DNA of 57,080 nt, filler included, from Sphacelaria rigidula (GCA_964200075.2; 5 parts of 5 records of this genome joined end to end with filler, not necessarily neighbours in it); one strand, 5' to 3'. Shown: positions 105-44,571, counted from the whole stretch's first letter. Numbers and translations are program-made. Notes: generated from the sequence alone by a model not told the origin.

Positions 105-380
105 CAGTGTAGCGAGCTGTGTCTGGAAGAGGCAATAACTGAAAATGAAGCAACTCATTGAAGGCTACCATTCATATGCAAGATAATCAATACGCTCCGG
201 GCCGAACGATCTTAGCAGGATGCAGATCATCTCTCATGCAACCATCGAACACATCGCACTTGGTGATTGCGAGCCTGGTCCCGCGAAATCCCAGTGTGCT
301 CCGTTCCGGCGTTGTAGAGATGCGAGGTCAATGATTATATGACTATGGCCTGCATGATGATGAGTACACCCCCCTCCCCC
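105..380 (+). mobile_element. Family B interspersed repeat (SINE-like, LINE-related 3' end)
   Basis: Aligns with 5612-5950 (-), 12465-12750 (-), 24155-24265, 36165-36365 and 56945-57022; ends atgagtac followed by a C-run. Confidence 0.7.
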
Positions 381-469
381 GCCAAACCCCGAGTGGCAAC
401 AACAAGATCGTGTATTGTGACGGCAATCAAAGCTGCAATGTGCAATGCACGTACCTGTTATGTGTGCAG

Positions 470-1558
470 GAGTACTTCAACGGCGTCAGCAAGCCATGGG
501 TAGACAAGATTCGCGACAACGATGTCGTTAACAGCAAGTACAACAACGCTATCGAAGCAGAACACGGCACCTGGGAAAGAAGCTTTCGCAGCAACGGAAG
601 CGGTCAAAGCCGCCCGTTGTTGAAGAGAAATCAGCAGCTGAACTTGAGCGTAATGCACGGCGGCAGCAGCAACCGGGTCGCGAACAACAGAAGCAGCAGC
701 AGTAGGTCCGTGTCGTCCGCGCCGATGCCGCGAGACAAGCCCCGCTCATCAGCAAGCACGGGAATGATAGATAAGGCGGCCGGCCGCGGAAGACCCACCG
801 CGATGACGATGAGATGGCTGGGTGTGGCCACTAGCAACGTGTCGTCGAACACGGCCACGACGGCGACCGCGACCGCGAGGACGCCAGGAGCGATGTGGAG
901 CAGCGGCAGCGGCGACGAGGGTGGGGGGGGTATGGAGCACAGTCGCAGGAATTCCCCGAGAGACGGTCCAGGAGGGGGATTAGACATGGGCCACTCGTTC
1001 TCTGCGCTCAGCGCCACTTCTCCGAGCACATTCAACAATAAAAGCAATCCTCCCACGGGGATACCGCCGCCGCTGTCTCCGCTCAAGCGCGATGAATCTA
1101 CAAGGTCGCGCAGCCGGAGCCGTTCGCGCAGCGGTAGCGTTCATACCAGTGTCTACGGCAGCAACGGCGGCGGCGCTGGCGGCGGCGGCGCCAGTAGCGG
1201 TAGCGCTGCTCGGCAACAACAATTGCACAACGAAACAAAACACGCACCGATGGACAACAGTTCCCTCCCCGTACCGTCTCCGGTCATGGATCGACGGCGG
1301 CGGGGCAGTATCCGGAGCAACAGCGGGGCTCCATTTTGGTCGAAGGAGCCGGCGGATGAGGTGGCGCAACACGGGTCGCGTGCACGACGACGACCGGGTG
1401 ATGGTGATGATGATACCGAGGATGAACGGGAGTCGTCTTCGGCGGCGGCGGCGGCGGCGGCGGCGGCGGATGCGCCAAGAAAGAGGTCCTCGCGCCGATC
1501 GGCGTCATTACGGTCACCGGCACCTTCCGTCCGGGAGGAGTCGGCCATGTTTTGGGAG
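470..1558 (+). CDS. Gene A internal exon 1 (unknown protein, low-complexity S/G/R-rich insert; possibly CLU-central/TPR-like)
   Basis: Acceptor tgtgcag|GAG at 469/470 and donor GAG|gtgagc at 1558/1559; 363 open codons (EYFNGVSKPW...SAMFWE); phase 0 joins the next exon. The 5' part of the gene is off the contig. Confidence 0.8.
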
Positions 1559-1944: not shown

Positions 1945-1959
1945 CCCCCCCCTCCCCGG

Positions 1960-2839: not shown

Positions 2840-3466
2840 GTATTGCGAGCGGGGAGGGGGGGAGGGGTGATTTTTTGTCTCCCAATCTCAAAGATGGATA
2901 TTGGCAGTGAACCTTCCTATTTCTCGCCCAAGAGGTGGATACCGTATGTGATGCGGTATCACACACGCACCCTGCACTGACACGCTTGGATAATGACGTT
3001 CTGTCTATTTTTTGCATTTCAGGAATACGTGGAGTACGGTACGGGGGTATGCGGTATGACAGATACCACCCCTTCAATATCTTCCCCGCGGGTTATACAA
3101 ATATAAATACATGGATTTTCGGAATCCCGAAGTCTCATCACCCGCAGGCAGGTATATGTTTTTGCCCTGTGTCCGCCTTGGAGTACTATGTATTGCACAT
3201 TTTCTAAAATTAGAAAAAGAGGTGTCGTCAGCAATGTAGCACAGACAGTAACTCCCATCTATATATATCGACTGTATAGATATCGCACAGCATACATGGA
3301 AGTCTATCCTGCCGTTTTTTTTCTCTTCACTTTTTGGAGAGCTGTAAGATGGATAACATTGTGGACGACATACCGTCGCTTCTTGATGTATGATCTCACA
3401 TCGTCTCCCCATTGCCTTCCCCGCCCCCGTCCCCCGTACCCTCATTACTGTTGGTCGTTCACACAG

Positions 3467-3793
3467 CTTAACCGCATCCGATATTGATTCCCGAACCGGA
3501 GCACCCGCTGCCCTCGGCAGCGCCAGGTTCAAGGGCCTGGGGGAGGAGGCCAATGCTGTGAAAAGGAGGCTACGGGAGAAGTGCCGCCGCCGGTGGGTGG
3601 CGGACGTGAAGATGGAGTCGCGCAGCGGCAGCGCTACGAGCATTGATAATAGCGCAACCGGCGGCGGGCCGGGAAGGATAGGGTGGACGGGCGTCTCGGC
3701 AAAGGAACGGGCGCACTATGCGACCATCACGCAGAGTATTTTGGGGCAGTTCGTGGATTGCGGGGGTCGCGACGATGTGGCGTTTGCGCGCAG
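3467..3793 (+). CDS. Gene A exon 3
   Basis: acacag|C acceptor, AG|gtgagg donor; phase 2 in and out; (S)LTASDIDSRTG...DDVAFAR. Confidence 0.75.
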
Positions 3794-5950: not shown

Positions 5951-6073
5951 CCCTTCAAGTGATCCCCCCCCCGCCCTCCCCCCTCTCTCTCGCTCCTCCT
6001 CCCCACCTTCCATTGAAACGTCAACGGTGTTGTCGTGCAATTAACCACACAACGCAACCTCGCAACACGGCAG

Positions 6074-6496
6074 AGAGATCGCTGAGTCGCGACTGGCCCT
6101 AGCCGTGACGCATTGGTATGAAGGCAACAGCAAAGCCGCCAAGGACGGAGTAGAGGCGGCGATGCAGGTGCTGCTGGAAGGCAAAGTGACATCGCCATCG
6201 CCATCGTCATGTCGGTCGTCGTGGCCGCCATCGTCGCTGTCCGTCGCTGCTTCTGCTCAGGCTGATGCCGACGATAGCTTTGAGGCGGGCCTCGGTCTGG
6301 ATGAGGTTGGGGGCGGGGTAGCAGCGGCGACGGCCCGGGGGGCGGAGGAGGGTGAATCGGTTGTTGGTGGTGTGCCCGTACCGCTTGTGCTTTGCGTGGT
6401 CGGCGCGTTGATGTTCCTTATCACCGCGGGTGACAAGCAACATGAGTCTGACGATGATGGTGATGGTGTCGGTGATGCCGAAAACGGCAACACCAG
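6074..6496 (+). CDS. Gene A exon 4
   Basis: ggcag|A acceptor, AG|gtgcgt donor; phase 2 in and out; (R)EIAESRLALAVTHWYEGNSKAAKDGVEAAMQVLL, a TPR-like helix pair. Confidence 0.75.
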
Positions 6497-6718
6497 GTGC
6501 GTGTGTTATACTCAAGGGGCATACTGCTCTTTCATATTCCATTGAGTCATTCTCCCATGTCTATTGAAGTCGAGTGTGTAAAAATCCGACGGTTGTCATC
6601 GTCCACCGTGTCACACTCCACTGAGTTTTTTCTGGCATTTGTGTTATCGTACGCCGCACGAGGGGCCCCATGTCGGGAAATGGTTGCACCACCGCCCCCC
6701 AGGCCGCAAAAACCAGTA

Positions 6719-7631: not shown

Positions 7632-8631
7632 TGCCCAAAAACCTCATTCTGAGGTTGGAGGAGGGGGGATGGGGGGTACCCGATTTCGTGTGGGGGGGTA
7701 CCCCGTGATCGCTGGATGATGGCGACAGTAGTTGCTGCACTGCACCGCACGTGTACAGATATTTATCTCTTAATTACATTCCATAACGGCCGCTACCTCG
7801 ATATTGGATACTCCTTTCGCCACACCACGTCCACAGCATTCCCCTTTGCAACGTCTCCCTGTATTGTGTCGCACTGCGGTATGAATCGCGATGTGTAGAT
7901 ACACGCGTTGTATGAACACGGCTGTCTGCCCAAACGCGGCCGAAGTACGTGATCATCTGCAATTCACAGTGTGCACGTCTGTATAATCAGAACATTTTCG
8001 TGTCGGCTAGTAACACTGCACAGTCAAGTTACTGCATGTACACTTCAGTCATTCAGTAGCAGTGCAGAACTGTTCGTCGCACACCGCCCCCCTCAGCATG
8101 GCGGCCGTATCACTGCGATAGTGCCACGTTGGTAACAACCGATCCTGCAAAAGCCAGCGGGAGTCAATATTCATTATCCAGTGATCACCGCGACTCAGAA
8201 GTCATTTTCAAGCCGACAAATTTGCTCCCCCATGACCACAAGAACAACTGACACACCTAAACTCCTCGGTTTTGGGGTGGTCACGTTGAGGCGAACTCGG
8301 AGATATCTAAATGATCGTTCAATTCCGTATACTAGTGGAGAAATAGGAAGAAAAAGGTTTCTCCCAATTGAATTTTGGTCTTTTCCTCATTCTCGACCAC
8401 GGGGGGGGGGGGGGGGGGGGGGGTTAACCCACTATTTGGGTTCCCGAACGGCGCGGGGGGGGGGGCCGGGTCGGCTCCCGGGCGTCCACNNNNNNNNNNC
8501 TGGACGTAGCGGGCTGGGGGCGGGGGTAGCGTGGGTCGTGGGGGCGCTTGTTTTTTGTCTGCTGGGCGGGCCGGGGGGGGGGGGGGAGGAGGTGGCGGTG
8601 GTGCAGCCATTTACCGATATGCGGCCCCTTG

Positions 8632-8830
8632 CGCCGCACCCTGGTTGCCTAACCTGTGAACAGTACCCGCATCTGGAAACTGGTAAGGGCGCAAGGTTGC
8701 GGGCTCGAATCCCGATAGATATTGTACCTTTTTCTGTTCTGAGAAATTTATGTGTTTTTCCCCTTGAAAATGTGGGGTAGTAAGTAGCAAAGAAAATTTG
8801 GGCAGAGTCGACGCGGGACGGGAGACAAAT
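8632..8830 (+). mobile_element. Decayed tRNA-derived SINE-like sequence
   Basis: Degenerate A-box-like tggttgcctaac and B-box-like gggctcgaatccc; downstream gtcgacg.ggga resembles the body of the SINE at 39628-39990. Confidence 0.35.
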
Positions 8831-11128: not shown

Positions 11129-11236
11129 CTTGCTGCACTGGTGGGAAGAAGATCGCTCGGTCCGGCTGATGTGGCCGCTCGAATGGTGTACATGCTCCTC
11201 AAGGGCGAAAGGGGTTTTGTGGACAAGGCTTTCAAG
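11129..11236 (+). CDS. Gene A exon 6
   Basis: T-rich tract then gtag|CTT; 36 codons LAALVGRRSLGPADVAARMVYMLLKGERGFVDKAFK; AAG|gtaggg donor; the gene continues past the contig end. Confidence 0.65.
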
Positions 11237-11440: not shown

Positions 11441-11799
11441 CCCGTGGTCACAGAGTGCAAGGAGCATACCACCAATATACCCATAACCCAAACAGCCCGC
11501 AGAAGAAGTCAGGGCGTACTCGAGACAAACGCAAAACCGTGGTAATGTCTAACGATGATGTTGTTTATAGTGGCAATAACAACGTTACTATCACTGTGAC
11601 CCTCACCTCTCTCATCCAAAACGCCTGAAAACAGTACTGCCCGGCTTGAAAGTCGTCATGTCTATCCCTGTCTGGGAGATTGCTGTACTTTTTTGTGGGT
11701 GAACGTAACCCTCCACCCCCGTCTGTCAGTCAACCTCACAACCCAGCGTCACCGTCCCGTAACACCGGACCGGTTTCGTTCCTACCCATGACACGTGTC

Positions 11800-12150
11800 A
11801 CGCATCCCGTGGGTCCCCCCAGTGAGATATGCTTTTCCCTACAACATATAGTATTCTAGTCTTCATCTTTTTCGGAAAACTCAAAATTTTGAATCCTTCT
11901 AGAATCCGCATCAACCGTGTTTTGATTCTCGAGGTGTCGATGTTCTCGGCGAAGTATATTTCGACGGCTCGGAAGAAGCGGCGGGTTGTACCCGCAGGGT
12001 CATGGGCCATGATATCTGCAAGTACACCGCTCGCGCGAGCTCGCGTGTGAAGGAGAACGTGTTTGTCCGTACGCCCATCGTTCTGGGTGATGGTGGAACG
12101 TACCCGTTGCCCGTCTGTCTCTTCCACACTGCTAGTATTATTGGCCATGG
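11800..12150 (-). pseudogene. Possible decayed Helitron Rep (HUH) fragment
   Basis: STITQND resembles Rep motif 1 (FxTxTxN); IMAHDPAGTTRRFFRAVEIYFAE resembles the DPV..AR.F helix; a frameshifted RLEY...THG lies where motif 2 is expected. Pattern recognition only. Confidence 0.35.
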
Positions 12151-12464
12151 TAACGATGTTTGTTGGAGTGATGCTTATGCTCTGGATTGCAGTGATGGTC
12201 AAGTAGCAGCGGTGACTGTTATGGCAGCACTAGAAGTGCCATGACCGAAATATGTATGTATGATGGCGATGATGGCCTTCAAAATCGATGGGTATAACAC
12301 GAATATGTCTACGCGAGAGATGACTACTGCAACGCATCCACATCGCCCCCCGGTTCCCCGTTTAGTGTACCCACACGCGAAATGATTCACAGCCACACCC
12401 TTTCCCGAGTTTCCTTCAGCGGGTGTTTCCGTTATTTCACCCGACTAACCCCGACGGTGTTGAG

Positions 12465-12750
12465 GGTGGGGGGTGTCATGATTTTGCATGCCGTGGTCGT
12501 TGAACCATTGACCTCGCATCCCTGCAAAGTGATGGGGCATACCGGGTTTCACCAGACCATGTGCGCGATCACCAAGCACGAAGCGCCGTGATGTGTTCGG
12601 CGAATCGAACGAGGGGTGGCCTGCATCCTGCTAATATTGTCCGGCTCGAAGCATACTAATTATCTCGCTGATGGATGACAGCCTTGAATTACTTGCCTCA
12701 TTTTCCGGTATCGCTACTCCCAGAGATAGCCACTGGTCAACTGCCTCATG
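12465..12750 (-). mobile_element. Family B repeat copy
   Basis: G-run then catgattttgcatgcc...accattgacctcgcatcc...caagcacgaagcgccgtgatgtgttcggcgaatc. Confidence 0.7.
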
Positions 12751-13232
12751 AATGTCTCACCACGGGGGGGGGTATTCTATTATGTTTTTGTGACTTCTCT
12801 GTTTTTCTCGATATGTTTTGGAGTCTCAGACGAAGGCTCCATGGGCGCTTCTATCTCATCAAAAGGAAAAGTAGTGACGGTACTGGGAAGGCGAGCCTAC
12901 GTGTGTGACCCCGGGTTGGACAGATCGGGCTCATGTGCAGAAATATTGGTGAAGTATTAGTAATATTATTATGAATGAGACGCGTTGGATACGTCTATCT
13001 CGTGTGACCTCGGCTGGATTTGTGAAGGATCAGTTGGTCTCAACGTGCGACTTTCAATCCAATCCATTCATCAAGCCAACCAGTCAGTTAGGGTAGGCTC
13101 CCCTGTCCTACTTGGAGACAGTGCTGTGTACACCACTCCAGAAAACCTTATTCTTCCTCCTTCTGCCACTCCTCGTCCTCCTCCTCTTTTGTGTGCACGC
13201 CCCTCGTCATTGTTCTCGCCGTGAACGCACAG

Positions 13233-13412
13233 AGCACTAGCCGAACTTGGCAGCATCAGCAGCAACAAGCACAGCAACAAGCATCCCTCAACAGTGGCGG
13301 CGGCGCCGGAGGTCTTTACGGTCGGACACCCTACGTTGCCGCGAGCCCTGTCCCCGTCATACCCACTGGCACACCCTCTGGTCTTCCATACTCCGTTCTC
13401 CTGCAGCAACAG
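13233..13412 (+). CDS. Gene B (PAM2/GW-repeat protein) upstream Q-rich exon, ends at a GC donor
   Basis: gcacag|AGC acceptor; 60 codons STSRTWQHQQQQAQQQ...SVLLQQQ; donor CAG|gcgagt; phase 0 joins 19627. Confidence 0.65.
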
Positions 13413-14828
13413 GCGAGTGATTGATTATCAGTGGATGTGGGGGGGGGGGCATACTTATTTGTTGCTGGCCTTCGCTGTTTGACCATTGACCACGAATCCA
13501 TTTCGAGACGGAGCACCGTTCCTACTCCTAGTAGAGACACCTTCAACATTCCGGCGCTCATTACGTTTCTTCCTTACATTTCACAAAAAACCCTTCATGT
13601 ATCTTATCCCCGTCCTGTTTCGCCGCCTCTGGCCCTCATCTATCTCCTAGTGTAGCCATCGTTTTCTCGCCGCTGTCTACTGCAACAAACAATTTCATGC
13701 CACCTTTGTTCACGTCCCGCATTTTCTCCTCTAGCACGTCCCGTTCCTCGTTGTGTGTTGTTCACATTCTGCCACTAAATGACTTCTGCTCTCTATTGCT
13801 TTGTCACAGGGGCAGTTCTGTCCATCTGCTCTCTCCTCCATACGACTACTGGTGAATATATTTCTTCCTGGCAGGTTCAGGTCGCCCACCCGAGATCGCA
13901 GTTTCACTTTTTTCGCTGTGTTCATTAGGCCATGCAGAGATGTTTTCTTCCCGATTCTCCCTCTTAACCCCCGTATATCTTCAGGTGTTCTTCCTCGTCT
14001 AGTTCACGTCTGAGGGCTCATTTTCCCCTTATTTCTATAATGTCCCTCACTCTTGTCTTGTACCCCGCGCCTTCATCTATGGACAGTATTTCGTCTTGGT
14101 TTCCTCCTATCTCCTTCCGTACTTTCTCACGACTCTTTCATCCCACCTATTCCAGCATGCCCTTCCGCACTTTTCTTCCATATAATACAGCCCCATCAAC
14201 TATAGCTAGCAATCTCTTTCTCTGCATGTTCTTCAAGCTATATTGCCACCTCAATTTCCTCATGTCTGTTTGGTTATAAGTGCGTACATTCCCAACTCTA
14301 CTCTCAATGCTGTATGTACTCGTCATTTTCGAGCATTCCAGTATCTCCTTAGCTGCTGCCATCTGTTCTGTGTCCAACTTCTTCACCAACTCCACGTTCC
14401 CCTCCCTTACTTCTTCTGCATATTCCAGCTTTGGTACGATTGCGTTCATCAGGATACATGTCTTGATCCTAGTGTCTACGTGCGAGTCTCTGAGGACCAC
14501 GTCCATCATTCCTATCTGTGCCTTACCCTGTTCTATTAATTTATTTATGTGTGCATCCCAAGAACAGTACAATGTTTCGAGACCTGTACACCGAGGTATT
14601 TATACTGGTTTACAATCGGCAGTTCCTCTCTTCCCCACTTGAATTTGAACTTGACCGGATTTTTCTTATCTTCGTCACATACGAGTACCGCGCATTTGTT
14701 GACGTTCGCTGTCACTTTTCATTTCCTAGTGTATTCCAGAGCCTTTTTTATTTGTTTTTGCAATCCTTCTGCGGTTCCTGAAATCCCCTCAAAATCATCT
14801 GCGAAAATAGAACCTGGTGTCACATCTT

Positions 14829-17028
14829 CACAGGCACCGTAGGTAAGGTAGGTACCCGGTACCAGTATTTGGGACATCTCATACCATACCAATGCCGGTC
14901 CAATTGGGTATTTTCAAATGGCAAACCTACGATACCCACAATACCGTGGTATTTCGAGATTTCAATATCTACCGTACCCGCACGATCGGGTATTTCATAT
15001 GTCGTACGATACCTACGATACCACGGTATTTTGTGATTCCAGTACCTACCGTACCCGCTCGATCGGGTATTTTCAAAACTCATACCTACGATACCCCGGT
15101 AAATGCCGGGGGTATACCCGGTAATACCGGACGCGATGCACTCCCCCCCGGTGTAGCAGCTGATCCCAACTTGTTATGCAAAAGCCAGAAGTTGTCGGAG
15201 CAGGTAAGTCTTGTTCTCACAAGTAATATACACCCGGGTTCCCCCTGATTCGCGTGTTTGTATCAATTTGAATGAACTCATGATTGCGTAGTCTGAAAAG
15301 CAGTCGTTTTCTTTCTCGATCAGATAGAGTCACCGCATTTCTGCCCTTCGAAGGCTCTAACTCCTATTTGTTTAGCTCGGAAATGGTACCAGTTATAACT
15401 GGCCATTATCATTAAAATGGTAATAATGGTAATGGACTGTTGCCGAGATAGCCCCCCCCCCCCAAACCGGCCGAAAACGTGCACGGAGGCGATGATCATA
15501 ACTGCCGTTGAAGCTGGTATCGTGCTGTACGACGCGATTGATTTGGGCGTTATAGCTGATTTTGGACTGCTACGCGCCTCTCATGTGGGCTATCTCGGCA
15601 TTAGTCAATGGTTCTATGAAAGTTTTGGATAATGGTTTCAAAACCATTTTTTTGCCGTTACCGGCCACGTGTGCTACATACAGCCGTTGAAAACTGGCCC
15701 AAATCGAACGTATTTTTAAGCTCTCGTGAAGCCTAATCGTGTAAAAACGTGCTTCCCGCACGGCGGGGCCCCCTCTACCGGGGATATTTTTGGCTGGCGG
15801 CTGCGCCGCTCGATGACCAAACCATTATGTACCATTTAACTGGTTTTTGAGTGCGCTACGCGTAACCATTCAACTGGCTAATGGTTAGACGAACCATTTC
15901 CGAGCTCTACCAATTTGTAATTAGTGGCGCGCGGAGAAAAGTACAAAACAAGGAATCTAAGCTTCTTACGATCGAAAACATGCGGTCGAAAGGCACGGAG
16001 CGGCACTTGACTCCTATCTTACGGACCACCACGCCAGATAACACCCGTTCACAGAACCATGCTAACTCCATCCAACTCGTTCTCAGCTACCATCCCAACC
16101 CTGCAGCATCGAGTACGATTTGAGCACAGGGATAAAAACGCTGCAGTAGTTGGATATGCTTTGTTTATTTTTCATGGGCGAAAACTTGCGCATCTTCTTT
16201 CATGGCGGGATCAGCGACGGAACTGCGTGGTACGGTGGGCAACCGATTAAGGTGGACGCTCATAGACAGCGCAGACAGTACAAAAGCTGCACGTTGTTGA
16301 AGTCCTTTTCACGTCGCATTGTCAGCAGAGAGAACTGATAGTCCTGGACTGTCTGTACTGCACGTTGCCCGCTCCTCTTGAAAATCTTACTGTACGAAAC
16401 ACGCACACACGCACTCGAGACACGCTGCGTGTAAGCAGTGCAGACAGCACAGACTGTCTGTACTGTACAAGAGTGACCATGTACCCGTTTCATGAATTTC
16501 ACCGCTTTTTTTCGGTCGAAAGCTTGAAAGTTCGATTGGACCCAACTCGATAAAAACGTGCGATTTTCGCTCAAATCAAGTCCACCGCCACATTCTTTCG
16601 ATATATATATATATATATATATATATTTGCCGACACCGCCCTGGAACGCTTCTCCGCACTGCCGGATGATAGTTTTGAATTCGGTATAGAGGGTAAGGTG
16701 GGTACCCGGTACTGGTATTTGGGACATCTCATACCCTATCGATACCGACCCAATCGTATATTTTCAAATGCCATACCTACGATACCCACGATACCACGGT
16801 ATTTCGAGATTTCAATGCCTACGGTCCCCGCTCGATCGGGTATTTTCATATTTCATACCTACGATACCTACGATACCACGGTATTTCGAGATGGCAATAC
16901 CTACCGTACCCGCTCAATCAGGTATTCTCAAAACGCATACTTACGATACCCACGCATACCACGGTATGGGATACCCCGGTAAATACCGGGGGTACGCTCG
17001 GTACGGTACCTTACCTGCGGTTCCTGTG
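14829..17028. mobile_element. 2.2-kb non-autonomous hAT-like element inserted in the LINE
   Basis: TIR cacagg(c/a)accg(t/c)aggtaaggta; TSD cacatctt/cttatctt (6/8 match). Removing the element and one 8-bp TSD restores the RT frame VGEDVTPGSIFADD. Confidence 0.85.
15371..15909. mobile_element. 539-bp hAT-like MITE nested in the 2.2-kb element
   Basis: TIR core agctcggaaatggt (15374-15387) / accatttccgagct (15893-15906); TSD cctatttg/ccaatttg (7/8 match); internal aatggt/accatt motifs. Confidence 0.75.
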
Positions 17029-17875
17029 CTTATCTTCACCCACCTTGACTCCTTGGTTTACTTCTTCTATCGCCAATATCAGGCCATTAATGAATACCTC
17101 GAACAAAGTGGGTGATAACGTATATCCCTGTGCAACTCCTTGTAAAATATAAAAATAGCTCGATATTTCCCCGTCTAGTATCGTAGCACTTTTGGCACAT
17201 TCTCTCATCTTCTTCACCATTCTCCACATCTTTCCTCTGATCCCAGTTTCCCACAACTTTTTCCACAGCCCATTTCTTCATACTGTATCATAGGCCTTTT
17301 GCACGTCCAGAGTGGCTGTCAGCCCGGCGTCTTTCCTACCTTGAATACTCTTACCTAGTGTGTACACACGGTCTACGCAACTACGGTTTGGCGTAAAACC
17401 TGCTTGTCCCTCGCTGATTCTCTCTTCCTGGTCTAGCATCGTTCCTACCCCATCATTCAGAATCTTACACAACGGTTTCCATACCGTGCTCAGTAGGGTT
17501 GTCCCTCTGTAGTTCCCTGGGTCAGCCTTGTCTCCTTTTTTGAAAAGGTTGACGACTACTCTTTATTTCCACCTCTTGGGTGTGTACTCGTCTCCCCATA
17601 TCCAGTTGTTTTGTATAACCATCCTGGTAACCATCCCTTCCCCCCCGTACTTCAGAAAATCATTCACTATTCCGTCTGCCCCTGCTGGCTTTTTGTTCTC
17701 GGCTTTAGCTGCACACTCCTCTACTTCATCTCTGGTGAACTTTCTCTGCAATTCGTTCGGGCCACTATCCTCCCGTTTTGTCGTCTCTACATTTTTCTCC
17801 TGCCCACGCGTTGATTTCTTTTTCGAATTCCATGTTGAAGTCCGTGGTTGTTTTTGGAGTTCCTAGTTTACGGTA

Positions 17876-18777
17876 CAGTAGTTAGCGTCAGAAGTATGCA
17901 TCATTCGTCTTCTCTTAGTTTATCAAGGATTTTCCAAATTCGTTTCGCTGGCCACCGCTCATCAATAGGACTGTTGGATGCCAAAAAATGGGCATCCGGA
18001 GATTTTTCATTCATCTTCACAAATATTATAAAAAGAAGATCTGCAATCAATATTGATCGACTTACGGGCTTGACGGATCTTCGGGGGTCCTGCGAAAGTG
18101 CAACCCCAGATTCTGGCTTTTCGATATTTTCGGTGGACCGACTCCATCCCGATCATATAAGTGAAGACTCAAATATGATTATTTTTTTGAAGTTCCGTCT
18201 ATTCACTGCGCTAAAGCCGGAAAGCCATGTTTTTTTACCAATTACGGTCACTAACACCCTCCTGATAAATGGGGTCTATACTCCGTATAGTCCCCACAAC
18301 ACCAACTTGGGCATTGTGATTCGAGCAGGGCCTGCGTATTTTGCCGAAACTATCGACGCCAGCACTTTCGAGTGCTCATGGAAAATGTCATGCGAAAAAA
18401 GCCGAAAAGAGGCCATCCGCAGAAAATGCTAGACTCAGGTCTGTGCGGTATAGGAGGGAACCACGATCTCAATCGTTATTGTGAAGAATTGTATACGTAT
18501 TCATTTATCCGAATATTTACCGTTTTGTTGCGCAAAAGCCGGAAAACTGTTCTTATTGGACCAAAAACGGTCAATTGCACCCTCCTGATAAATAGGGTAT
18601 ATAGTCCGTATCGCCCCAAAAACACCAATTTGGGCATTGCAGTTTGAGCGCAGCCTACGCTTTCCCTCTAAGTCTTCCGGCGCTAGCACTTTCAAGTAGT
18701 AGTGAAAAATAGTACTCGAGGAAAACGCAAGAGCTACAACAAGTACGAATCCTGAAGACTTCTGATGCTGACTACTA
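17876..18777. mobile_element. 902-bp Tc1/mariner (pogo-like) MITE inserted in the LINE
   Basis: TIR cagtagttagcgtcagaagt / acttctgatgctgactacta; TA TSD; excision restores LINE frame LVEHYRKLG; internal direct repeat of about 110 bp (about 18213-18326 and 18536-18649). Confidence 0.85.
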
Positions 18778-19626
18778 TAGTGCTCGACTAGCACTTCTCT
18801 CTTCCCCTTCGAACTACTGACCATTTTACCGTTCTGTCCCTTGAGTGTGGTTGTCCTCTTGTCCGTCTTTCCTGCCTGGTTTCCCATAATCCGTTTTATC
18901 TCTGCCCACATTCTTTTCATCCCGCCACCGAAATCTTCCTTTGCTTCAATCACGACATCTTCCCATACTTCCTCTTTTTTCTGCTGTACCGTATTTTTCA
19001 CTTCCTTTCGAGCTGTAGTATACTCCTCCCATCCTACCGCACCTTTGCTTGATATCCACCTCGCTGGGTCTCTCTCCTTACTCTCTAAGCCTCTTTCACT
19101 TCCTCATCCCACCATTTTACTTCATGGGTGGTGGTGGGGGAGGGGGGAGGGGGGAGGGGGGGGGAGTCGTGGACCTCCTACATCGACGGCAGATCGCAAC
19201 ATATCACCAAATGTACTGGACGTTGCTGTGCCGTTCTTGGGAACGCTCCAGACCGTTCTGCGGACCTCACTAAAGATGCGAGTACCTCAGGTGGCTGCTA
19301 GAACCACGTTTTGTGTTGGAGGGAATTGCGATTAAAACCCCCCCGATGAAAACGAAGCGCGTGGTAAGTCATGCGTCGTTACCATGCGGGCTTCAGTACG
19401 TCTCCGAAGCGTGGATAAAAATTTCGTTTTCGCTCTCGCGCCCCTATTCAGGTGTCGCACTAGTTCTCGTGGGGCTGTACTGTATTGCTACAGAAGAAGC
19501 AAGTCGTTCGCAAACGCTTCGAAGACGAGATATGAAGTACCATCTCTTCGTGCTCGCAGTTTTATGGCTGTGCTAACGAAGGGCCACATGTTTCGACCCC
19601 CGCCTCCCTGTTCTTGATTCACTCAG

Positions 19627-21129
19627 GCCGCGTACAACGCTTTAGCAGGGATCGGGGCAAACACCGCGAATTTGATGGCCACAGCAGGCGGCGGCGGCGG
19701 TCCGAGACACAGCCCGGTCCTATCCCCCGCTGCACCGGCTTTTAATGCGCACGCAACGGCCGCCGGTGTGGTAAGCTCCGGGATGGGGGTCGGTGCCGGC
19801 TACGGTAGCAGTGCGATCAGTGGTACTGACGCAACCAGCACCACCAGATCTACCCCGCCTCTTTCTTCTACAGCTCCGGAGTTCAACGTGAACGGTACTG
19901 TCGCCACCACCGCCGCCGTCGGCCGGAGCGTTGAGTTACGGCCGAACCCTCCGCCAGGAGTTCAGGTAGATGGCGTCCCCGCCGCCCCTGGACTGTCGTC
20001 GCAAGCACAGCCTTACCAGCCCTCTGGCATGGTGCCAGCGCCGACAAACAACGCGCAGCCACCGCCGCCACCGCCGCCGCAGCAGCAGCGACAGCCTCCC
20101 CCGCCTGCCGCGATGCCAGCCAGCTTACACGCACAATCGCAGCCGCTGCCGCCGCCGCCGCCACCACCACCGCCGCCGCCGTCGGGGCCGCCACCCACAG
20201 TCACCGCCGCTCCCCCCCAGCAATCATCGACGTCAGGTGGATGGGGTGACGGCAGCAACTCTCCTCCTCCGCAGCACCAACAGGCACCAGCTCCTTCGCC
20301 GGCAGCATCAGGGTGGGACGCAGAGCCACAGCCGAAGACGGTGGCAACAAGTGAACCTTCGGGTTCTGGGTGGGAGGACAGTGGGGGTATCCCTGCCGCC
20401 GGTGGTGACGGCGCCCGCGCAACTCCTTCGCAGTCCGGGTGGGGAGACTCGGAACATTCTGGTGAGGTCGCCACGGCGGTTGCTCCCTCCGCAACTCCTT
20501 CGCAATCGGGATGGGGGGATTCGGAACAGTCTGCTGCGGCCTCTACGGTAGCTGCTGCCCCCGCTGCTGCCCAGTCGTCCTCTGGGTGGGGCTCTCCGGA
20601 GAATCCTCCCACTGCCGCCGCCGCGCCCGCGGCCATCCAGTCATCCTCTGGTTGGGGATCTCCGGAGAACCCCTCTGCTGTCGCCGCCGCGCCGGCGGCC
20701 GTGCAATCATCCTCTGGTTGGGGATCTCCGGAGAACCCCTCTGCTGTCGCCGCCGCGCCCGCGGCCGTGCAATCATCCTCTGGGTGGGGTTCTCCGGAGA
20801 ATCCCCCTAGTGCCGCCGCCGCGCCCGAGGCCGTCCAGTCATCCTCTGGGTGGGGATCTCCGGAGAATCTTCCCCCTGCCGCCGCCTCGTCTGCGCCAGG
20901 CGGCGGGTGGGGCGCACCCGAGCACCACAATGACGCGAGTGCCAGTAGCGGCGCCGGCAGGGGCGATATGGCGGAGAGATCTGGGTGGGGAGATGATACC
21001 GGCAACGGGAGTGCGCGGGGCGTTGGTGGGTCCTCGGGAAGGGGGTGGGGTGGGGACGATGGGGGCGGGCAGGCGACAGAACAGGGGACAGCAGACGGGG
21101 AATCGGGCTGGGGTAACGCCGATGACCAT
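19627..21129 (+). CDS. Gene B main exon: three PAM2-like motifs, Pro/Gln tract, 14 GW motifs (putative Argonaute-hook protein)
   Basis: actcag|GCC acceptor; 501 open codons; CAT|gtgagg donor; LSPAAPAF, LSSTAPEF, LSSQAQPYQP; repeated SGWG in S/G/A/P/E-rich context. Confidence 0.88.
20572..20880 (+). repeat. Coding tandem repeat, 66-nt (22-aa) unit QSSSGWGSPENPSAVAAAPAAV, about 5 copies
   Basis: Five SSSGWGSPEN units at 66-nt spacing with synonymous variation. Confidence 0.9.
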
Positions 21130-21463
21130 GTGAGGAGGGTAGGGTCAAGCGTTTTGTTTTGGTCGGCTCGTGGCTGTGGTGCTCGTGATTTCGATGTCAG
21201 TGGACAATCATAGTTGCAGCACTTGAGTTTTTGTTTGATTCATCTCATCATTTTTTGAAGTCATTCTGGTGTTTTTTTTTTTTATGGCAGTGGGCGTAGG
21301 AGCCAACTTCGAAACTGCCAGCTGTTTTGTGAAGAATATTCGGTCAACTGTTGACACATCCAAGATAAGGACACAGAGACTGTGGCGCCCCTCTTGAGAA
21401 ACGTCTTTTCCGTCAAACTTCTCGATCCTTTCGACCCCTACGGACTGGTGCTCTCATCATCAG

Positions 21464-21678
21464 GCCCCCGCCGCAGCACCAGCTAGTTCTGGGTGGGGAG
21501 AAACTGCTACCAGCAATAACGACGACAGTTCTTTTGGCGGTTGGAACACATCGACTGCCGCTAACACCAGCAACAGCGATGCTTCTGCGGGGTGGACCAC
21601 CGTGGGTACAGGTGGGAACAGAACGAGCGAAAAGCCGAAAACTGCCTTTGTTGATTGGTTGCCATCTCTCTTGGCTAC
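21464..21678 (+). CDS. Gene B next exon (3 more GW motifs, then a hydrophobic segment)
   Basis: catcag|GCC acceptor, phase 0; APAAAPASSGWGET...FGGWNT...AGWTT...FVDWLPSLLA; AC|gtatgt donor; not in the ORF track; the gene continues off the contig. Confidence 0.8.
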
Positions 21679-22466
21679 GTATGTTCGCGGTGGCTTTGTT
21701 GCCATCGCATTTTTTGTTGTACTACTACGATGATGCAGCAATTGGAGAGATGAAACATTTTCCCCTACGTGATTGATTCGCAATAGAATGATGTGCCCCC
21801 TTTTGCGATACCAATTTTGAGAATTTAAACGTGTGGCGAATTTTTAGCAACTGATGCGGACCTAAAAACACCGTCTCCGAAGTGAAGCAAGACGGAGATC
21901 GCCATTCCTCGATCCGTTGTTCCCAAAAGCATTCCAGAACATTTTTGTTTCTACAGGGCACAACATTGCCCCGAAAAAACACACTAGAATACACGGTATA
22001 TGATGGATCGCGAACTTCGGACAGTAATGTGCCCTCCGACAATCAGAGCGTTTTGATGAAGGTGGGTTAATCTGAACATGCCCGCCCTCGTCTTGGTGTA
22101 CCCCCGGCGCGAACTCGCACCCGAGGCATACCGAGAACCCTCGAGCAAGGGTGTCCAGAAGATATCCCTGCGAATGTGGGCGTTGGTGGAGCTGAAATGA
22201 GTGCGCCGCCGCAGGGGCAAAATCAACTAGTACTCATGCCGCGTTTTTTGTTTTTTCTCATGCTGGCGAGTAGTTTGGACTGCAAGCCCCCCCCCCCCAC
22301 ACACATGAGAACGCCCCCCACCCACTTCAAAAGATCCAGGTGTGGTCATACCGCAGAACCAAGAGGGTTACAACAACGGATTTTGGCCATATGTGGGGAT
22401 TACTTGTACTGACTTATTTTCTTCGCATACGTGGTGGAATCATCCGTATGTCCACTCAGGGTGTGA

Positions 22467-22660
22467 GAAGGGCAGGTCGGGTGGAGTATACCCGATTTTT
22501 TGCTATTTTGATGCGTGGAGAATCCGACCCATGCACAGCAGCAGCCAACCCAGTGCTGATGTCTAAAGCCCATCCAAGGCATTGTGGCTGACTCGGGCAG
22601 CTGATGTGCGACGTATCAAAACACCAAAGTGTCGGGTACACCCAACCCGACCTGCCCTTT
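22467..22660. mobile_element. Short hAT-type MITE sharing TIRs with 43291-44388
   Basis: aagggcaggtcgggt ... acccgacctgccctt; TSD poorly preserved. Confidence 0.7.
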
Positions 22661-22674
22661 CAGTGTTGAGTCTG

Positions 22675-22738
<64 letters not shown>

Positions 22739-23391
22739 ACCCAATATACACTCGTGCAAATAGAAAAGCCTGTATTTTNNNNNNNNNNNNNNNNNNNNNN
22801 NNNNNNNNNNNNNNNNNNNNNNTTAATTAATTAANNNNNNNNNNNNNNNNNNNNNNNNNNNNNNNNNNNNNNNNNNNNCACGGTCAGAGCTGGGATCGAT
22901 GTGGGGGTTGGGTGGCGTCCCGGGGGGGGGCGGGGGGGGGCGGGGGGGGGGGGGGGGGTGTTAGCCTCCGAAAGTGTTCGGGTTGTTGTAAGACCATATA
23001 CAACTTATCTTCATTTATTTTTTTCCCATCGGGATAGACTTCATTTATGTATAGACAGTACGGTCGTGAGCAATGCACCGGAGTAGAGTGTGTGTCATGC
23101 GCGGAGAAGGCCTTCTAGGGTTCTCTTCGAACCGACGGGACGGGTCCTCGACGTCTCTGACTAGCTAGACTGACTAGCTTCATTTTTACATCACGAAGAA
23201 TCGGCGCACCTCTTGGAGAAATCATTTTCTTGATGCCTTTCCAGCGATTCGCTCATCCAATTTCTTCTTGGCTTTCCTTGAGATGAAAAAAGCAACGTTG
23301 GAAAAAGATCGCTCTCGAGAGACGGTTGATGAGTACCTCCCTCCCCCCCCCCCTCTCTCGAGATTGCTGCGATATTACGTCACTATGTTTT

Positions 23392-23671: not shown

Positions 23672-23906
23672 TTATTGTGCACGCTACGCACACAGGGTGG
23701 CGAAAAAGTGGATTCATTTCGCGGCACGCTGTTGTTGTGATTTCCTTTGATCGGGCGCTTGACTTGGGTTTGAGATGAAGGTGTTCACTCACTGAAGCAC
23801 GAGAGACCGGATCCATTTACGCTTGAAGTGCCAAAACCAAACCAAAACCGTGAGCTTATGCGTCGACACGTTCGTGTTGGAAACGCAAACGACCGGCACC
23901 CTGCAG

Positions 23907-24069
23907 GAAAGAGGTCGGGGTCATCCACCGGCATCGGATCGACCGCATCCTGGATCACTTCTTCATCTCCAGGATCAGCCTTCGGTTTCTGGTGGAGACA
24001 TACATCAGCAGCAAGAAAAACAAGCCTGGCTTTTCCGGCGTGATCGAGTCCGAGTGCTCTCCTGTCCTG
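23907..24069 (+). CDS. PDK: Pyruvate dehydrogenase kinase family gene (PDK/BCKDK), internal exon
   Basis: ctgcag|G acceptor, CTG|gtacgt donor; RIDRILDHFFISRISLRFLVETY...GVIESECSPVL matches the family pattern FLDRFYxSRIxIRML...GxI...CxP. Confidence 0.88.
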
Positions 24070-24154
24070 GTACGTACAAGTATTCACGATATCCAATCGT
24101 GTGCCGAGAAACGTTGGAGGAATGTAACTCCCCCTCCTTCCCCCCCCAAGAAGA

Positions 24155-24265
24155 TGACGAGCCTGGTCCGGCGAAAACCCGGCGTGCTCCGTCTCGGCTT
24201 TGTGGGGATGTGAAGTCAATGGTCTTACGACTGTGGCATGCAAAATCATGAGTACCCCCCCCCCC
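24155..24265 (+). mobile_element. Family B repeat 3' end
   Basis: gagcctggtccggcgaaaacccggcgtgctccgtctcgg...tcaatggtc...atgagtac followed by a C-run; a C-run also precedes it (TSD-like cccccccaa). Confidence 0.75.
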
Positions 24266-25156: not shown

Positions 25157-25763
25157 GTAGGTTCCCGTGCACTGCTTTTAGCCGCAGAGCGCGTGAGGAT
25201 AGTCCCGGAGTGCGTTGTTCGTGTTATCCCGGGGCGAATTTTGCTCTTGAGCTACACCGTCGTCGGCAGCAGTATGAACGCAGTACTGCCCCCGCGCCTT
25301 CACCCGTCAACATCAAAGGGGGGTTGGCCGCGTTGACGCACGTTTATGCGCGCCGTTTGTGCGGTGCTGCAGACGCAAGAATGGGCTGGGGGTATGTACG
25401 CCGTGGATACAGATGAAGAAAGCAGCCCAAGATACATTTCTGTCCCGCCACTGAAGAACCCCTTCGACACATGTCTCGCGTTTGCAGTGTACACTTCCGA
25501 GCTCATGTCTCCTCGTTTGCCTGCATTTTTTTTGTACTTTGATAGTATGCCTTCCGCTCTATATCATCCAGCTGCTTTATGAGCGGGCGTCCCCGACCCC
25601 ACACGTCTCTGTTGCTACACTTGTTTTTTGTTCCTGTGATCGTAATACGTCCCACGCTCTGATTGATCATTCTACATGATGAGCGGGTGATCCGCTTTTT
25701 TTCTCGCTCTCTTGGTTTATAACCTTTTTTGAATTGTTGCTGCTGTTGATGTTGAATTCCCAG

Positions 25764-25910
25764 GTGTACGGTCGGGAGCGGGACACCTTCACGGCTGTTC
25801 CAAGTCACCTGTACTACATCATCCGCGAGGTGCTCAAGAATAGCTGCAGGGCGACTGTACAGCATCACAGCCGAACCGCCAAACCCGGATCCAGATTGCC
25901 GCCCGTTAAG
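25764..25910 (+). CDS. PDK: PDK exon (N-box)
   Basis: cccag|GTG...AAG|gtgagc; VPSHLYYIIREVLKNSCRATVQHH...LPPVK. Confidence 0.93.
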
Positions 25911-25957
25911 GTGAGCAGTAACAACGCCCTGCCGCTCGCAGCACGTACCTCGAGCTA

Positions 25958-26624
25958 CGAGCTGGGCCAGCCTAAAGGCAGATTTGAAGGTTACAGGCTC
26001 ACGCGCAGGCCAATATTTTAGAGTTGTAGCGTAAAATTCGGTATGGACAAGCATACGGCATGATTTGTCTTCACCAGTGTACCGTTTTTTTCCCCCCATG
26101 AGTTGAGGGCATTCTACTAACACCTTGAAACTAATTATTGCCCCAACTCATATGAAGAAGAAAACTTTTGGTACACTTGTTATCTTTTTTTCATGCGGTG
26201 TGCATTATCCATACCAAATTTTATGCTATATTGGCCGGTGCATTCGCCTTTTAAAAACCGAGTCAGTAGAAATTCGAAACAGTATGCGCCATGTCTCGAG
26301 ATGAATTACGAAATAGGTGAAGGGGAGGGTATCTATCGTCCCCCCGTGCTCCAGGGAATGTCCACCAAAAGGCGTCATCATCCGCTGAATGTATGGTTCG
26401 GGGTTTCATATAGATTTTAGTGTGGACGCTATCTCCGTTAGGTATGGTAATTACTAGACATGAGCATTAATCAAGGAGAAATTATAGGCTCAGATTTTTG
26501 AGCAGACGAGGACCTTCCCCTTGATGAGATTAATGATGCGATATGCGGATCATGGCCCAACTCCTCTTTGTCAATGAGATATTGCGTTGAGAACTTAAAT
26601 CCGTTTCTAGGCTGGCCCAGCTCG
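25958..26624. mobile_element. Tc1/mariner-type MITE in a PDK intron
   Basis: TIR of about 30 bp, TA|cgagctgggccagccta ... taggctggcccagctcg|TG; a second, contig-truncated copy starts at 45434. Confidence 0.8.
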
Positions 26625-27250
26625 TGAGGAATATGTAAACCAGGGCGATGAAACACCCCAGGGTCAGTTTTATGCATGCATGAACAACACCCTGCACTGC
26701 CATAGGATATATCTAAAAAAAATCAGTCAACGCAACGTTTACAATTACCTACATGCATGAGCAACATCATGCACTGCCATAGGATATCTTTTCCTGAAAT
26801 ATCTCAACGAGACGTGTCCAATTATCTACATCTCAGCGGCGTGTGGCCGCTGCGCTTTTTGTCGCCGAGGTTGATGCAGATTCCGCGGAGTTCGATGGTT
26901 GGCCGAGTTGCGATACGGCAGTGTGGTTTCGTTTTGTCTTGTGTGCATTTGAGGTGCCTGCGACGTGATGTTATTTGTGCGTACACCTCACGCTGTGCAA
27001 TGTAAACCTCTTGGCACTTGTGCGGTCCTGCGCGCGACGAAGTGTCGCCTTGGTTTCGATTGTTTCGTCGTTTTGACTGCGTAGTCGCATTCGTAGCAAC
27101 CCCTCTCTTTGTCGGAATATTTGTCTCTTTCTCTTTTTTTTTGTAGTCTGCGTCGAAGTTTTGAGTTAATGATGCGCTGATTGCATGTTCCCTTCGCACG
27201 CACCCTGCAAACGAATACGACGTTTTTATTTTTATTTTTATCGAGTGAAG

Positions 27251-27413
27251 GTTATTGTGGCTAGAGGCAAGGAAGACATGACTATCAAGATCATGGACGA
27301 GGGTGGAGGAATCCGTAGATCTGACTTGCAGCACGTGTGGTCGTACATGTACTCAACCGCGCCGAAGCCCAGCCCGTCTCAGCTTGGAGGCGTGCCTCTG
27401 GATCACATGTCGG
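27251..27413 (+). CDS. PDK: PDK exon (G1 box)
   Basis: VIVARGKEDMTIKIMDEGGGIRRSDLQHVWSYMYSTAPKP; G|gtaagc donor, phase 1. Confidence 0.93.
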
Positions 27414-30374: not shown

Positions 30375-30561
30375 GGATGAGACTGAAGGAAGAAGCGTCG
30401 CTCTTGAGCGCACCATCGGCGGCGAATAACACCACGTTCGCATTCGCCGGATATGGGATGGGCCTTCCGCTGAGCAGACTGTACGCCAGATACTTCGGCG
30501 GGAGCCTGAAGCTCAGACCCATGGAGGGTTACGGGACTGATGCTTACATTCACCTACACAG
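30375..30561 (+). CDS. PDK: PDK exon (G2 box)
   Basis: gcag|GG, phase 1; FAGYGMGLPLSRLYARYFGGSLKLRPMEGYGTDAYIHL; AG|gtgatg donor. Confidence 0.95.
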
Positions 30562-44549: not shown

Positions 44550-44571
44550 TTGCGTCGCGCTGTGCCTGCAG

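Follow-up and report, generated by a model that had tools for sequence, protein, structure and literature searches.

The locus examined here in Sphacelaria rigidula is a single-copy, expressed and spliced gene, of which at least 650 aa of coding sequence are seen. Judged from its sequence, the product appears to be an intrinsically disordered, lineage-restricted scaffold whose function would lie in short linear motifs rather than in folded domains. It is not a GW182 family member. The preferred reading is that the protein acts as a GW-type adaptor between Argonaute (AGO) and poly(A)-binding protein (PABP). The exon structure, the expression and the content and conservation of the motifs are established; we infer all of its binding partners and its role in silencing, and the probability of this reading is put at about 35%.

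Gene structure

The window is the whole stretch of DNA that was analysed, 57,080 nt with filler included, in which five records of assembly GCA_964200075.2 are joined. Contigs were placed on positions 11441–22778 and come from runs X1 to X4, which are guessed to be RNA-like, and from runs X5 and X7, which are DNA-like. The main features of the gene are as follows.

13233..13412, plus strand: exon E1, 60 aa, Q-rich (joints in X1 record 1 and X2 record 6)
13413..19626, plus strand: GC-AG intron of 6.2 kb, removed in X1 and X2
19627..21129, plus strand: exon E2, 501 aa, with 14 GW after three PAM2-like motifs and a P/Q linker
20041..20223, plus strand: poly-Pro/Gln linker, from the translation
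21130..21463, plus strand: GT-AG intron of 334 nt, joint in X1 and X2 only
21464..21733, plus strand: coding part of exon E3, 89 aa and TGA at 21731–21733, with 3 GW, VDWL and a hydrophobic tail
21734..22049, plus strand: 3' UTR of at least this length (X1 record 5 ends at 22049, X2 record 11 at 22048)

The three exon stretches proposed in the first-pass annotation are phase-compatible and translate as it had claimed. Both joints are present in the X1 and X2 contigs, which link 13231–13409 straight to 19624–20126 and 21129 to 21464 (GT..AG). In the DNA-like X5 and X7 contigs, both introns are unspliced and read through; the second is crossed by X5 record 19 and X7 record 26. Exon E1 is bordered by an acceptor AG at 13231–2 and a GC donor past 13412, and is in phase 0 on both sides. 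Over the E1/E2 junction, the orthologue P0004 (see below) reads ...LLQQQAAY..., the same as here. The 6.2-kb intron contains high-copy repeats, with repeat-level depth, and minus-strand reverse-transcriptase fragments with RVT_1 matches at 17278–17562 (minus strand, E=2.4e-8) and 17011–17277 (minus strand, E=7.4e-5). A CGC-type 3-nt repeat lies at 20138–20192, inside the poly-Pro/Gln linker.

The first-pass annotation ended the third exon at 21678 and placed the 3' end of the gene off the contig. Neither placement is congruent with the contigs. X1 record 5 spans the 21129/21464 joint and is continuous over 21464–22049 with no further joint, so the frame continues to the stop at 21731–21733, which lies in the window. 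The donor at 21678 is not used in X1 record 5, and beyond the joints listed a minor isoform that uses it is possible. The contig ends at 22048 and 22049 were dropped as a poly(A) site because a repeat begins there and X1 and X2 belong to one study. Depth is at repeat level in the 22025–22402 bin, and the repeat begins near 22050.

The 5' end had also been placed off the contig. The window itself reaches 13 kb upstream, and the RNA-like contigs hold 710 and 685 nt that fall before 11441, which corresponds to about 700 nt of 5' exons. The contig match to the genome begins at 13231 and not at 13230. The upstream exon would therefore end in AG preceded by a base other than C, a deduction that hinges on the placement of ambiguous bases by the tool. 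Two models of the upstream exons, C and A+B', were drawn up.

335..1558, plus strand: candidate exon of model C, an S/R/G-rich ORF with the end GGGAG/GTGAGC, phase 0
3387..3793, plus strand: candidate exon A of model A+B', with in-frame ATGs at 3390 and 3612 and donor CAG/GTGAGG, phase 2
6074..6305, plus strand: candidate exon B' of model A+B', with acceptor AG at 6072–3, in phase with exon A, and donor GATGAG/GTTGGG, phase 0

The model C exon agrees with an exon end of not-C, A, G. Exon A combined with an exon B that uses the donor at 6167 (GCAG/) was set aside, since its CAG end conflicts with this rule. Profiles of GC3 and GC islands gave no discrimination of exons. No Pfam domain was found in 84 plus-strand ORFs of at least 50 aa upstream, where a domain split over exons could escape. 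A PDB sequence search returned no match for ORF A, and for ORF 335–1558 the best E value was 0.25, which is not meaningful. Judged by eye only, a UBA-like reading is conceivable for ORF A together with ORF B. The N-terminal part might carry a domain that alters the whole picture.

GW tract

The maximum-scoring segment of the partial protein lies in E2 and E3, on both sides of the 21130–21463 intron, and contains a young repeat array.

20224..21628, plus strand: GW tract, residues 260–616 of the 650-aa partial protein, 17 GW
20560..20886, plus strand: young tandem array of five 66-bp units (86% matches), source of 5 GW

The count of 17 GW is the same as in the first-pass annotation. These dipeptides account for 17 of the 19 W (14 in E2 and 3 in E3); 13 occur as GWG and 10 as SGWG. 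In 5000 shuffles of the same composition, the mean count is 2.66 and the maximum is 9. The GW are spaced 16–26 residues apart (about 21, CV 0.14), and none of 100000 random placements is equally regular. Outside the young repeat array, the spacing is as regular as within it, at 16–26 residues. Position −1 of the W is G in 17/17 and position +1 is G in 13 and otherwise D, E, N or T. Within five residues on either side of the 17 W, G and S make up 51% of residues.

The GW/WG scoring that the first-pass annotation had proposed gives a high value. With the matrix of Karlowski 2010 (PMC2910046, Table 1), the tract scores 178.6 half-bits as a maximum-segment sum, which differs from the exact decay algorithm of the authors. 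The available text of PMC2910046 calls a score above 150 'strong', so the tract falls in the 'strong' band of this plant matrix. By itself, the exon-2 ORF reaches 140.8; the runner-up among the 487 window ORFs of at least 60 aa has 48.2. The same available text reports G/S-rich false positives, and the matrix is purely compositional. The Pfam Ago_hook model (PF10427) reaches 7.3 bits with E=8.3, below its cut-off of 25 bits. WG/GW platforms favour W, G, N, S, A and D and avoid L, I, M, Y and C, a composition that the tract shares by its matrix score. A composition like that of experimentally defined WG/GW AGO-binding platforms is thereby supported at the sequence level.

Tryptophan pockets are described in the available text of PMC12477606 as well conserved in metazoan AGOs and 'remarkably variable' in fungal AGO-clade and in PIWI-clade proteins. 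Because the pockets vary across Argonautes, GW binding by a stramenopile AGO cannot be assumed.

PAM2-like motifs

Three L-x3-A-x2-[FY] motifs are found exactly where the first-pass annotation had placed them.

19720..19749, plus strand: motif 1, LSPAAPAFNA, 9/9 core residues identical in P0004
19861..19890, plus strand: motif 2, LSSTAPEFNV, 8/9 identical in P0004 (E to V)
19993..20022, plus strand: motif 3, LSSQAQPYQP, with Y for F and Pro12 present, 9/10 identical in P0004

The PAM2 core is LNxxAxx[F/W] (consensus LNxxAxEFxP), and its conserved Asn stabilises a turn, according to the available text of PMC7356810. The L, the A and the aromatic residue of this core are correctly spaced in 3/3 motifs. 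Relative to the consensus, N4 is replaced by S in 3/3 and F10 by Y in 1/3; E9 is kept in 1/3, as is P12. The regular expression L[NS]..A..[FY], defined post hoc after the data had been seen, has three matches; of 20000 shuffles, 1.2% contain at least one match and none has as many as three. The Pfam PAM2 scan (PF07145) recommended in the first-pass annotation did not bear out a canonical assignment, with no match at E<=10 to the exon or to the three isolated 26-aa peptides (run with no positive control). In a PDB sequence search, the best E value for the PAM2-like region is 0.66, which is not meaningful. The three-motif region co-folded with a PABP MLLE domain (metagenome L036, Pfam MLLE 1e-33) scores 0.00, which is not evidence either way.

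In the Ustilago maydis protein Upa1, L and F are crucial for binding to the MLLE domain of Pab1. Networks of MLLE domains with PAM2 and PAM2-like motifs extend beyond PABP and include Rrm4, UBR5 and MKRN1 (both points from the available text of PMC11572963).

Conservation in an orthologue

An exhaustive search of 1.84e9 protein representatives returned 26 matches, among which P0004 is the sole relative. The other 25 are long SGEAWGTP-type repeat proteins and were rejected as unrelated (by eye on 7 of them). When the search was limited to residues 4–140, P0004 alone was returned. Word-index searches with the whole exon returned nothing and missed P0004, though it lies within the searched length range, evidently because low-complexity words swamp the search. 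An ESM Atlas search gave no usable match.

Identity to P0004 is 45% over residues 1–260 and 23% across the GW tract, with many indels. Only four identical runs of at least 5 residues are present (LLQQQAAY, LSPAAPAFN, LSSTAP and AQPYQP), and the last three of these fall in the PAM2-like motifs. In a MAFFT alignment, 12/12 W of P0004 align to W here, a figure that is partly fitted because MAFFT favours W–W pairing. The WG/GW matrix score of P0004 is 56.8 half-bits. The conservation of W residues and PAM2-like motifs, named in the first-pass annotation as a check, is thus borne out in a single orthologue of unknown divergence. Retention of the W and of the three motifs while the spacers diverge shows, as far as this alignment goes, constraint that does not name the partner.

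Proposed mechanism and alternative readings

In the preferred reading, the roughly 17 W, about 21 residues apart and flanked by small, polar or acidic residues (G/S/D/E), would form a multivalent W-motif platform. Argonaute PIWI domains would receive this platform in their tryptophan pockets. The W motifs of GW182 bind CCR4-NOT and PAN3 as well. The three L-S-x-x-A-x-x-[F/Y] peptides would bind the MLLE domain of PABP. Together, the two modules would connect AGO loaded with small RNA to the poly(A)/deadenylation machinery, doing the work of GW182 without being homologous to it. The scaffold may be held at a membrane by its short hydrophobic C-terminal tail. The most specific form of this reading is a stramenopile GW182-like effector that was built independently, with the GW tract on the single AGO (perhaps also on CCR4-NOT), the triple S-variant PAM2 on PABP and the tail bringing miRNA-guided translational repression to a membrane. 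Such an effector would be the third independent coupling of AGO to mRNA fate, after animals and plants. In this complete form the reading is improbable.

A possible, if doubtful, alternative is that the protein is a SLiM-based scaffold of an mRNP or condensate and works without Argonaute. The W motifs would then bind another W-pocket partner, for example a trafficking adaptor or a module of CCR4-NOT or PAN3 type. The L-S-x-x-A-x-x-F peptides would bind MLLE or another peptide-binding domain, and the Q/P-rich parts would drive assembly. The constraint on the motifs is consistent with such a scaffold, as it comes without a named partner. The W pockets of AGO are not universally conserved and MLLE/PAM2-like networks reach past PABP, which is also consistent with it (available text of PMC12477606 and PMC11572963, respectively). 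However, the composition and the G-W-G core are close to those of AGO-binding platforms, and nothing found points to another partner.

The C-terminal end of the protein bears on the preferred reading and on two of the alternatives.

21656..21730, plus strand: hydrophobic C-terminal tail WLPSLLATYVRGGFVAIAFFVVLLR (Kyte-Doolittle)

The first-pass annotation suggested that a folded domain might begin at FVDWLPSLLA. This is contradicted by the stop codon, which leaves room for only 17 further residues, in the hydrophobic tail. In 23 ORFs of at least 28 aa downstream to 24.3 kb, no Pfam domain was found except that of the neighbouring kinase. Over 19 residues, the Kyte-Doolittle mean is highest, at 2.06, in the windows LLATYVRGGFVAIAFFVVL and LATYVRGGFVAIAFFVVLL, which end 1–2 residues before the C-terminus. 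Small residues (GGN) and a polar spacer come before the hydrophobic C-terminus. The DNA of the tail is T-rich and lies just beyond a possible donor.

These windows would fit a membrane-anchored mRNA tether, in which the tail would sit in an organelle membrane and the PAM2-like motifs would recruit PABP-bound mRNAs, with the GW tract in an auxiliary role. The C-terminus of P0004 has a similar V-x-W-L and hydrophobic segment, and Upa1 offers a parallel, since it pairs PAM2 and PAM2L with a membrane-binding FYVE domain (PMC4466420 and PMC11572963, available text). However, the tails of the two orthologues diverge past about 12 residues, and the tail here is interrupted mid-way by Arg and Gly-Gly (R-G-G). 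It is also encoded by the T-rich DNA past the possible donor. The X7 variant T>C at 21720 changes V to A in the tail, whereas no X7 variant is present in E1–E3 up to 21678. A tether of this kind is considered unlikely.

The protein might instead be a fast-evolving, low-complexity protein without motif function. The GW periodicity would then be no more than what is left of an old tandem repeat, with the conservation due to a short divergence time. Five units do derive from the young 66-bp repeat, and the divergence time of the single orthologue is unknown. However, neither the W nor the three motifs were lost while the spacers fell to 23% identity with many indels, and the 16–26-residue spacing also occurs outside the young array. 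This explanation, too, has a low probability.

Very unlikely is a secreted, HRGP/arabinogalactan-like and possibly GPI-anchored wall glycoprotein, with P/A/S/T-rich repeats as glycomodules, the C-terminal hydrophobic stretch as the GPI signal, and GW and PAM2-like motifs unrelated to RNA. Arabinogalactan proteins have a PAST>50% criterion; P, A, S and T make up 51% of this protein, which also has a long poly-Pro run, AP/SP-rich repeats and a hydrophobic C-terminus after GGN and the polar spacer, but no candidate 5' exon opens with a hydrophobic, signal-peptide-like stretch (by eye), strict 21-residue W spacing is not an arabinogalactan-protein feature, and a disordered chain with Q-rich parts and conserved short peptides is more typical of intracellular regulators.

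Comparison with known systems

Brown algae have miRNAs and complex multicellularity that evolved independently. In Ectocarpus, no TNRC6/GW182 homologue was found by BLAST, according to the available text of PMC4513859. Ectocarpus has a single AGO, and the effect of its miRNA targeting on transcript abundance is described as a 'limited impact' (PMC12867755, available text). This leaves room for an effector that acts downstream of AGO. PMC12867755 makes no mention of mass spectrometry, immunoprecipitation or tryptophan. In the literature, no paper was found that joins a brown alga with a GW repeat, and the sources on GW182 and Ectocarpus, in their available text, describe no such protein. The gene is a concrete and cheaply testable candidate AGO effector in a lineage with none known. 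Should the adaptor role fail, the gene would still clearly illustrate how short motifs can stay conserved within fast-evolving disorder.

The protein resembles animal GW182/TNRC6 in its disorder, its multiple GW in a G/S-rich context, its PAM2-like peptides and its Q-rich segments. The GW182/TNRC6 logic, an AGO hook with a link to poly(A)/deadenylation, is the same as that proposed here. Unlike GW182/TNRC6, the protein has neither sequence homology to that family nor a Pfam Ago_hook match, and no RRM or UBA was found by Pfam in the 650 aa or the upstream ORFs, although a split domain could escape. The modules come in the opposite order: here the GW tract follows the PAM2-like motifs. The PAM2-like motif is present in three copies with S at position 4, and a hydrophobic C-terminal tail is added.

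The reiterated GW/WG is shared with the C-terminal domain of plant NRPE1 and with SPT5L/KTF1, where only W/G and overall composition are conserved. In NRPE1 and SPT5L/KTF1, these repeats are joined to a folded nuclear polymerase or elongation-factor core, whereas none is seen here. In contrast to the plant platforms, the PAM2-like motifs here point to cytoplasmic mRNA.

The likeness to Upa1 consists of several short motifs, predicted here to bind MLLE, long disorder and a membrane-targeting element, here a putative one (available text of PMC11572963). Upa1 differs in its FYVE domain, in the FxY core of its PAM2L, in its lack of a GW tract and in its unrelated sequence.

GW dipeptides and PAM2-like motifs

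In the 650-residue partial protein (the GW protein), 17 of the 19 tryptophans are in GW dipeptides (13 GWG, 10 SGWG), as the first-pass annotation claimed. Shuffles of the same composition (5000) have a mean of 2.66 GW and a maximum of 9, and the 17 GW observed here are not produced by composition alone. They are spaced 16-26 residues apart (CV 0.14), and equally regular spacing occurs in 0 of 100000 random placements. A young 66-bp x5 tandem repeat supplies five GW; the spacing is equally regular outside it. The pattern L[NS]..A..[FY], picked post hoc, has three matches (LSPAAPAFNA, LSSTAPEFNV, and LSSQAQPYQP). At least one match is found in 1.2% of 20000 shuffles and three are never found. 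The observation of the GW dipeptides and motifs is largely right and clearly non-random.

Conservation

Searching 1.84 billion representatives exhaustively with phmmer returns 26 matches at E<=1e-3. One of these is P0004 (525 aa, E=5e-24), an orthologue of the GW protein encoded by an unnamed ORF on one assembled contig. The remaining matches are SGEAWGTP-type repeat proteins and were rejected as unrelated after inspection of seven of them. Word-index protein searches find nothing beyond P0004.

In a MAFFT alignment with P0004, identity is 45% at residues 1-260 of the partial protein and 23% in the GW tract. The only identical runs of at least five residues are LLQQQAAY, which spans the exon 1/2 junction, LSPAAPAFN, LSSTAP, and AQPYQP. 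Three of these four islands are the PAM2-like motifs, and 12 of 12 tryptophans in P0004 align with a tryptophan, in a comparison with a single orthologue by a method that rewards W-W pairing. Short linear motifs kept by selection amid drifting disorder leave this kind of signature.

Gene structure and splicing

The three stretches proposed as exons translate exactly as described:

13233-13412 (+): exon 1
19627-21129 (+): exon 2, with all three PAM2-like motifs
from 21464 (+): exon 3

AG acceptors at 13231-2, 19625-6, and 21462-3 bound these exons, and the donors are GT after 21129 and GC after 13412. Contigs from four coded public runs were placed on 11441-22778. X1 and X2 come from one study and are RNA by the guess of the tool; X5 and X7 come from another study and are DNA-like. 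In the X1 and X2 contigs, 13231-13409 is spliced straight to 19624-20126, and a GT..AG joint connects 21129 to 21464. In X5 and X7, both introns are read through unbroken. A 3-nt CAG ambiguity at the exon 1/2 junction can be resolved near-canonically in one way, as a GC-AG intron spanning 13413-19626. Unique-depth bins show single-copy coding exons. The intron itself is packed with high-copy repeats. Retroelement-related pieces of the window are as follows:

17011-17562 (-): reverse-transcriptase (RVT_1) fragments inside the 6.2-kb intron (best E=2.4e-8)
13731-14003 (-) and 1940-2257 (+): two mutually similar ORFs elsewhere that, by eye, resemble a C-terminal portion from this retroelement family

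The 3' end and C-terminal tail

The first-pass annotation placed a donor at 21678 and the 3' end of the gene off the contig. Neither is borne out. X1 record 5, which spans the 21129/21464 joint, continues unbroken to 22049. Because it passes 21678 uninterrupted, the frame reads ...FVDWLPSLLATYVRGGFVAIAFFVVLLR to a stop at 21731-21733, so that coding finishes within the window. A minor isoform with donor 21678 may exist among joints and loose ends beyond those listed. The contig ends at 22048/22049 were dropped as a poly(A) site, as they coincide with a repeat start. Little space is left for further exons because a same-strand kinase gene starts by ~23.9 kb:

23854-24210 (+): mitochondrial BCKDK/PDK-type protein kinase gene (Pfam BCDHK_Adom3, E=5.5e-5)
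25683-26018, 27173-27421, and 30275-30562 (+): later kinase-like ORFs, recognised by eye

The first ~110 residues of the kinase domain were not located.

The best 19-residue windows of the C-terminal tail average 2.06 on the Kyte-Doolittle scale; the tail is broken by R-G-G and is coded by T-rich DNA. The GW protein and P0004 alike end in V-x-W-L, followed by a hydrophobic stretch. The tail holds the sole non-synonymous variant seen in X7 (V to A at 21720). Across 11776-22202 in X7, none of the 11 listed substitutions falls in the coding exons as far as 21678, nor does either of the two single-copy-region indels (12763 and 21287). The remaining indels are in the large intron's high-copy repeats, and five substitutions are grouped in 21720-22009.

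Comparison with known classes

The motifs had been called PAM2, and a Pfam scan for PAM2 gives no match, isolated 26-aa peptides included. Pfam Ago_hook reaches 7.3 bits, below its cut-off of 25, and Pfam assigns the protein no domain at all. Because the Pfam models give no match, the GW protein is outside the GW182/TNRC6 family. PMC2910046 defines the functional class of WG/GW AGO-binding platforms through their reiterated GW/WG and their composition, not through alignment. With the matrix in Table 1 of that paper, residues 260-616 sum to 178.6 half-bits, in the 'strong' band (>150 half-bits). The authors caution about G/S-rich false positives. P0004 sums to 56.8 half-bits, and the runner-up among the window's 487 ORFs to 48.2.

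The published PAM2 core is LNxxAxx[F/W] within LNxxAxEFxP. Its Leu and Phe occupy the two MLLE pockets, the turn is held by Asn4, and there is a steric requirement for Ala7 (PMC7356810 and PMC11572963). L, A, and an aromatic residue stand at the correct spacing in all three motifs. S replaces N in all three, Y replaces F in one, and Pro12 is present in one. 'PAM2-like' is the defensible name.

A KITGMLLE signature is found in ORFs of ~1000 aa on two metagenome contigs, L025 (1476-4631, +) and L067 (3747-6671, +). The surrounding sequence is unlike the PABP type, and these ORFs possibly encode a non-PABP MLLE protein.

Predicted mechanism and ALTERNATIVES

The GW protein may be a multivalent disordered GW-type adaptor, predicted to bind AGO and/or a deadenylase together with the MLLE of PABP; this tentative reading, the favoured one, has a probability of roughly 35%. 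The W motifs would engage the W pockets of AGO and/or the deadenylase, and the PAM2-like motifs the MLLE. The GW182-like adaptor of the first-pass annotation is better grounded in expression, conservation, and composition, but it fails the formal family models. The adaptor interpretation is plausible, and the protein is a good candidate for bench tests.

The biological context fits this reading if the organism is a brown alga. In PMC4513859, a TNRC6 homologue was not found in Ectocarpus. In PMC12867755, a 2026 study of the single Ectocarpus AGO without partner proteomics, miRNA targeting is reported to have limited impact on transcript abundance. The variability of tryptophan pockets beyond metazoan AGOs (PMC12477606) counts against the reading. 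The same scaffold could serve partners other than AGO, a possible though doubtful alternative. An Upa1-like PABP-mRNA tether, anchored in a membrane, is unlikely, and a low-complexity protein without motif function is just as unlikely. A secreted glycoprotein of HRGP/GPI type would suit the 51% P+A+S+T and hydrophobic C-terminus and is quite improbable.

Candidate upstream exons

Upstream of 13231, the two RNA-like contigs extend by a further 710 and 685 nt. Because this sequence is found nowhere in 11441-13230, the missing exons sit further upstream. The exon 1 piece in these contigs begins at 13231. If ambiguous bases are placed leftmost, as they are at the 13409/19624 joint, the upstream exon is inferred to finish with AG and to have a base other than C before it. 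This ending is shared by 18 phase-0 candidates, of which the best are:

335-1558 (+): GGGAG/GTGAGC; S/R-rich, disordered
3387-3793 plus 6074-6305 (+): chain, phase-compatible at both junctions
11129-11236: phase-0, with the AG ending

The best candidates have no match in Pfam or PDB. The open frame at 335-1570 (+; 412 aa) is S/R/G/A-rich, contains an RSRSRSRSRS run and a poly-Ala run, and closes with a strong donor in phase 0 at 1558. It belongs either to the GW gene, as its upstream exon, or to another gene, as its final exon. The ORFs at 3387-3794 (+) and 6045-6542 (+) are GC-rich, exon-like, and mutually phase-compatible, and give no family match. In the former, the ATG at 3612 stands in a strong context and the donor at 3793 is perfect; joined, the two ORFs would code a helical-looking segment.

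Other features

A disordered, G/S/N/R-rich ORF of 268 aa at 44525-45328 (+) has no match in Pfam and is possibly an exon of another gene. N-run assembly gaps are found within 8250-8650, 22600-23000, and 29850-30100. Long homopolymer-like runs of G or C border these gaps and give poly-Gly/poly-Pro in several frames.
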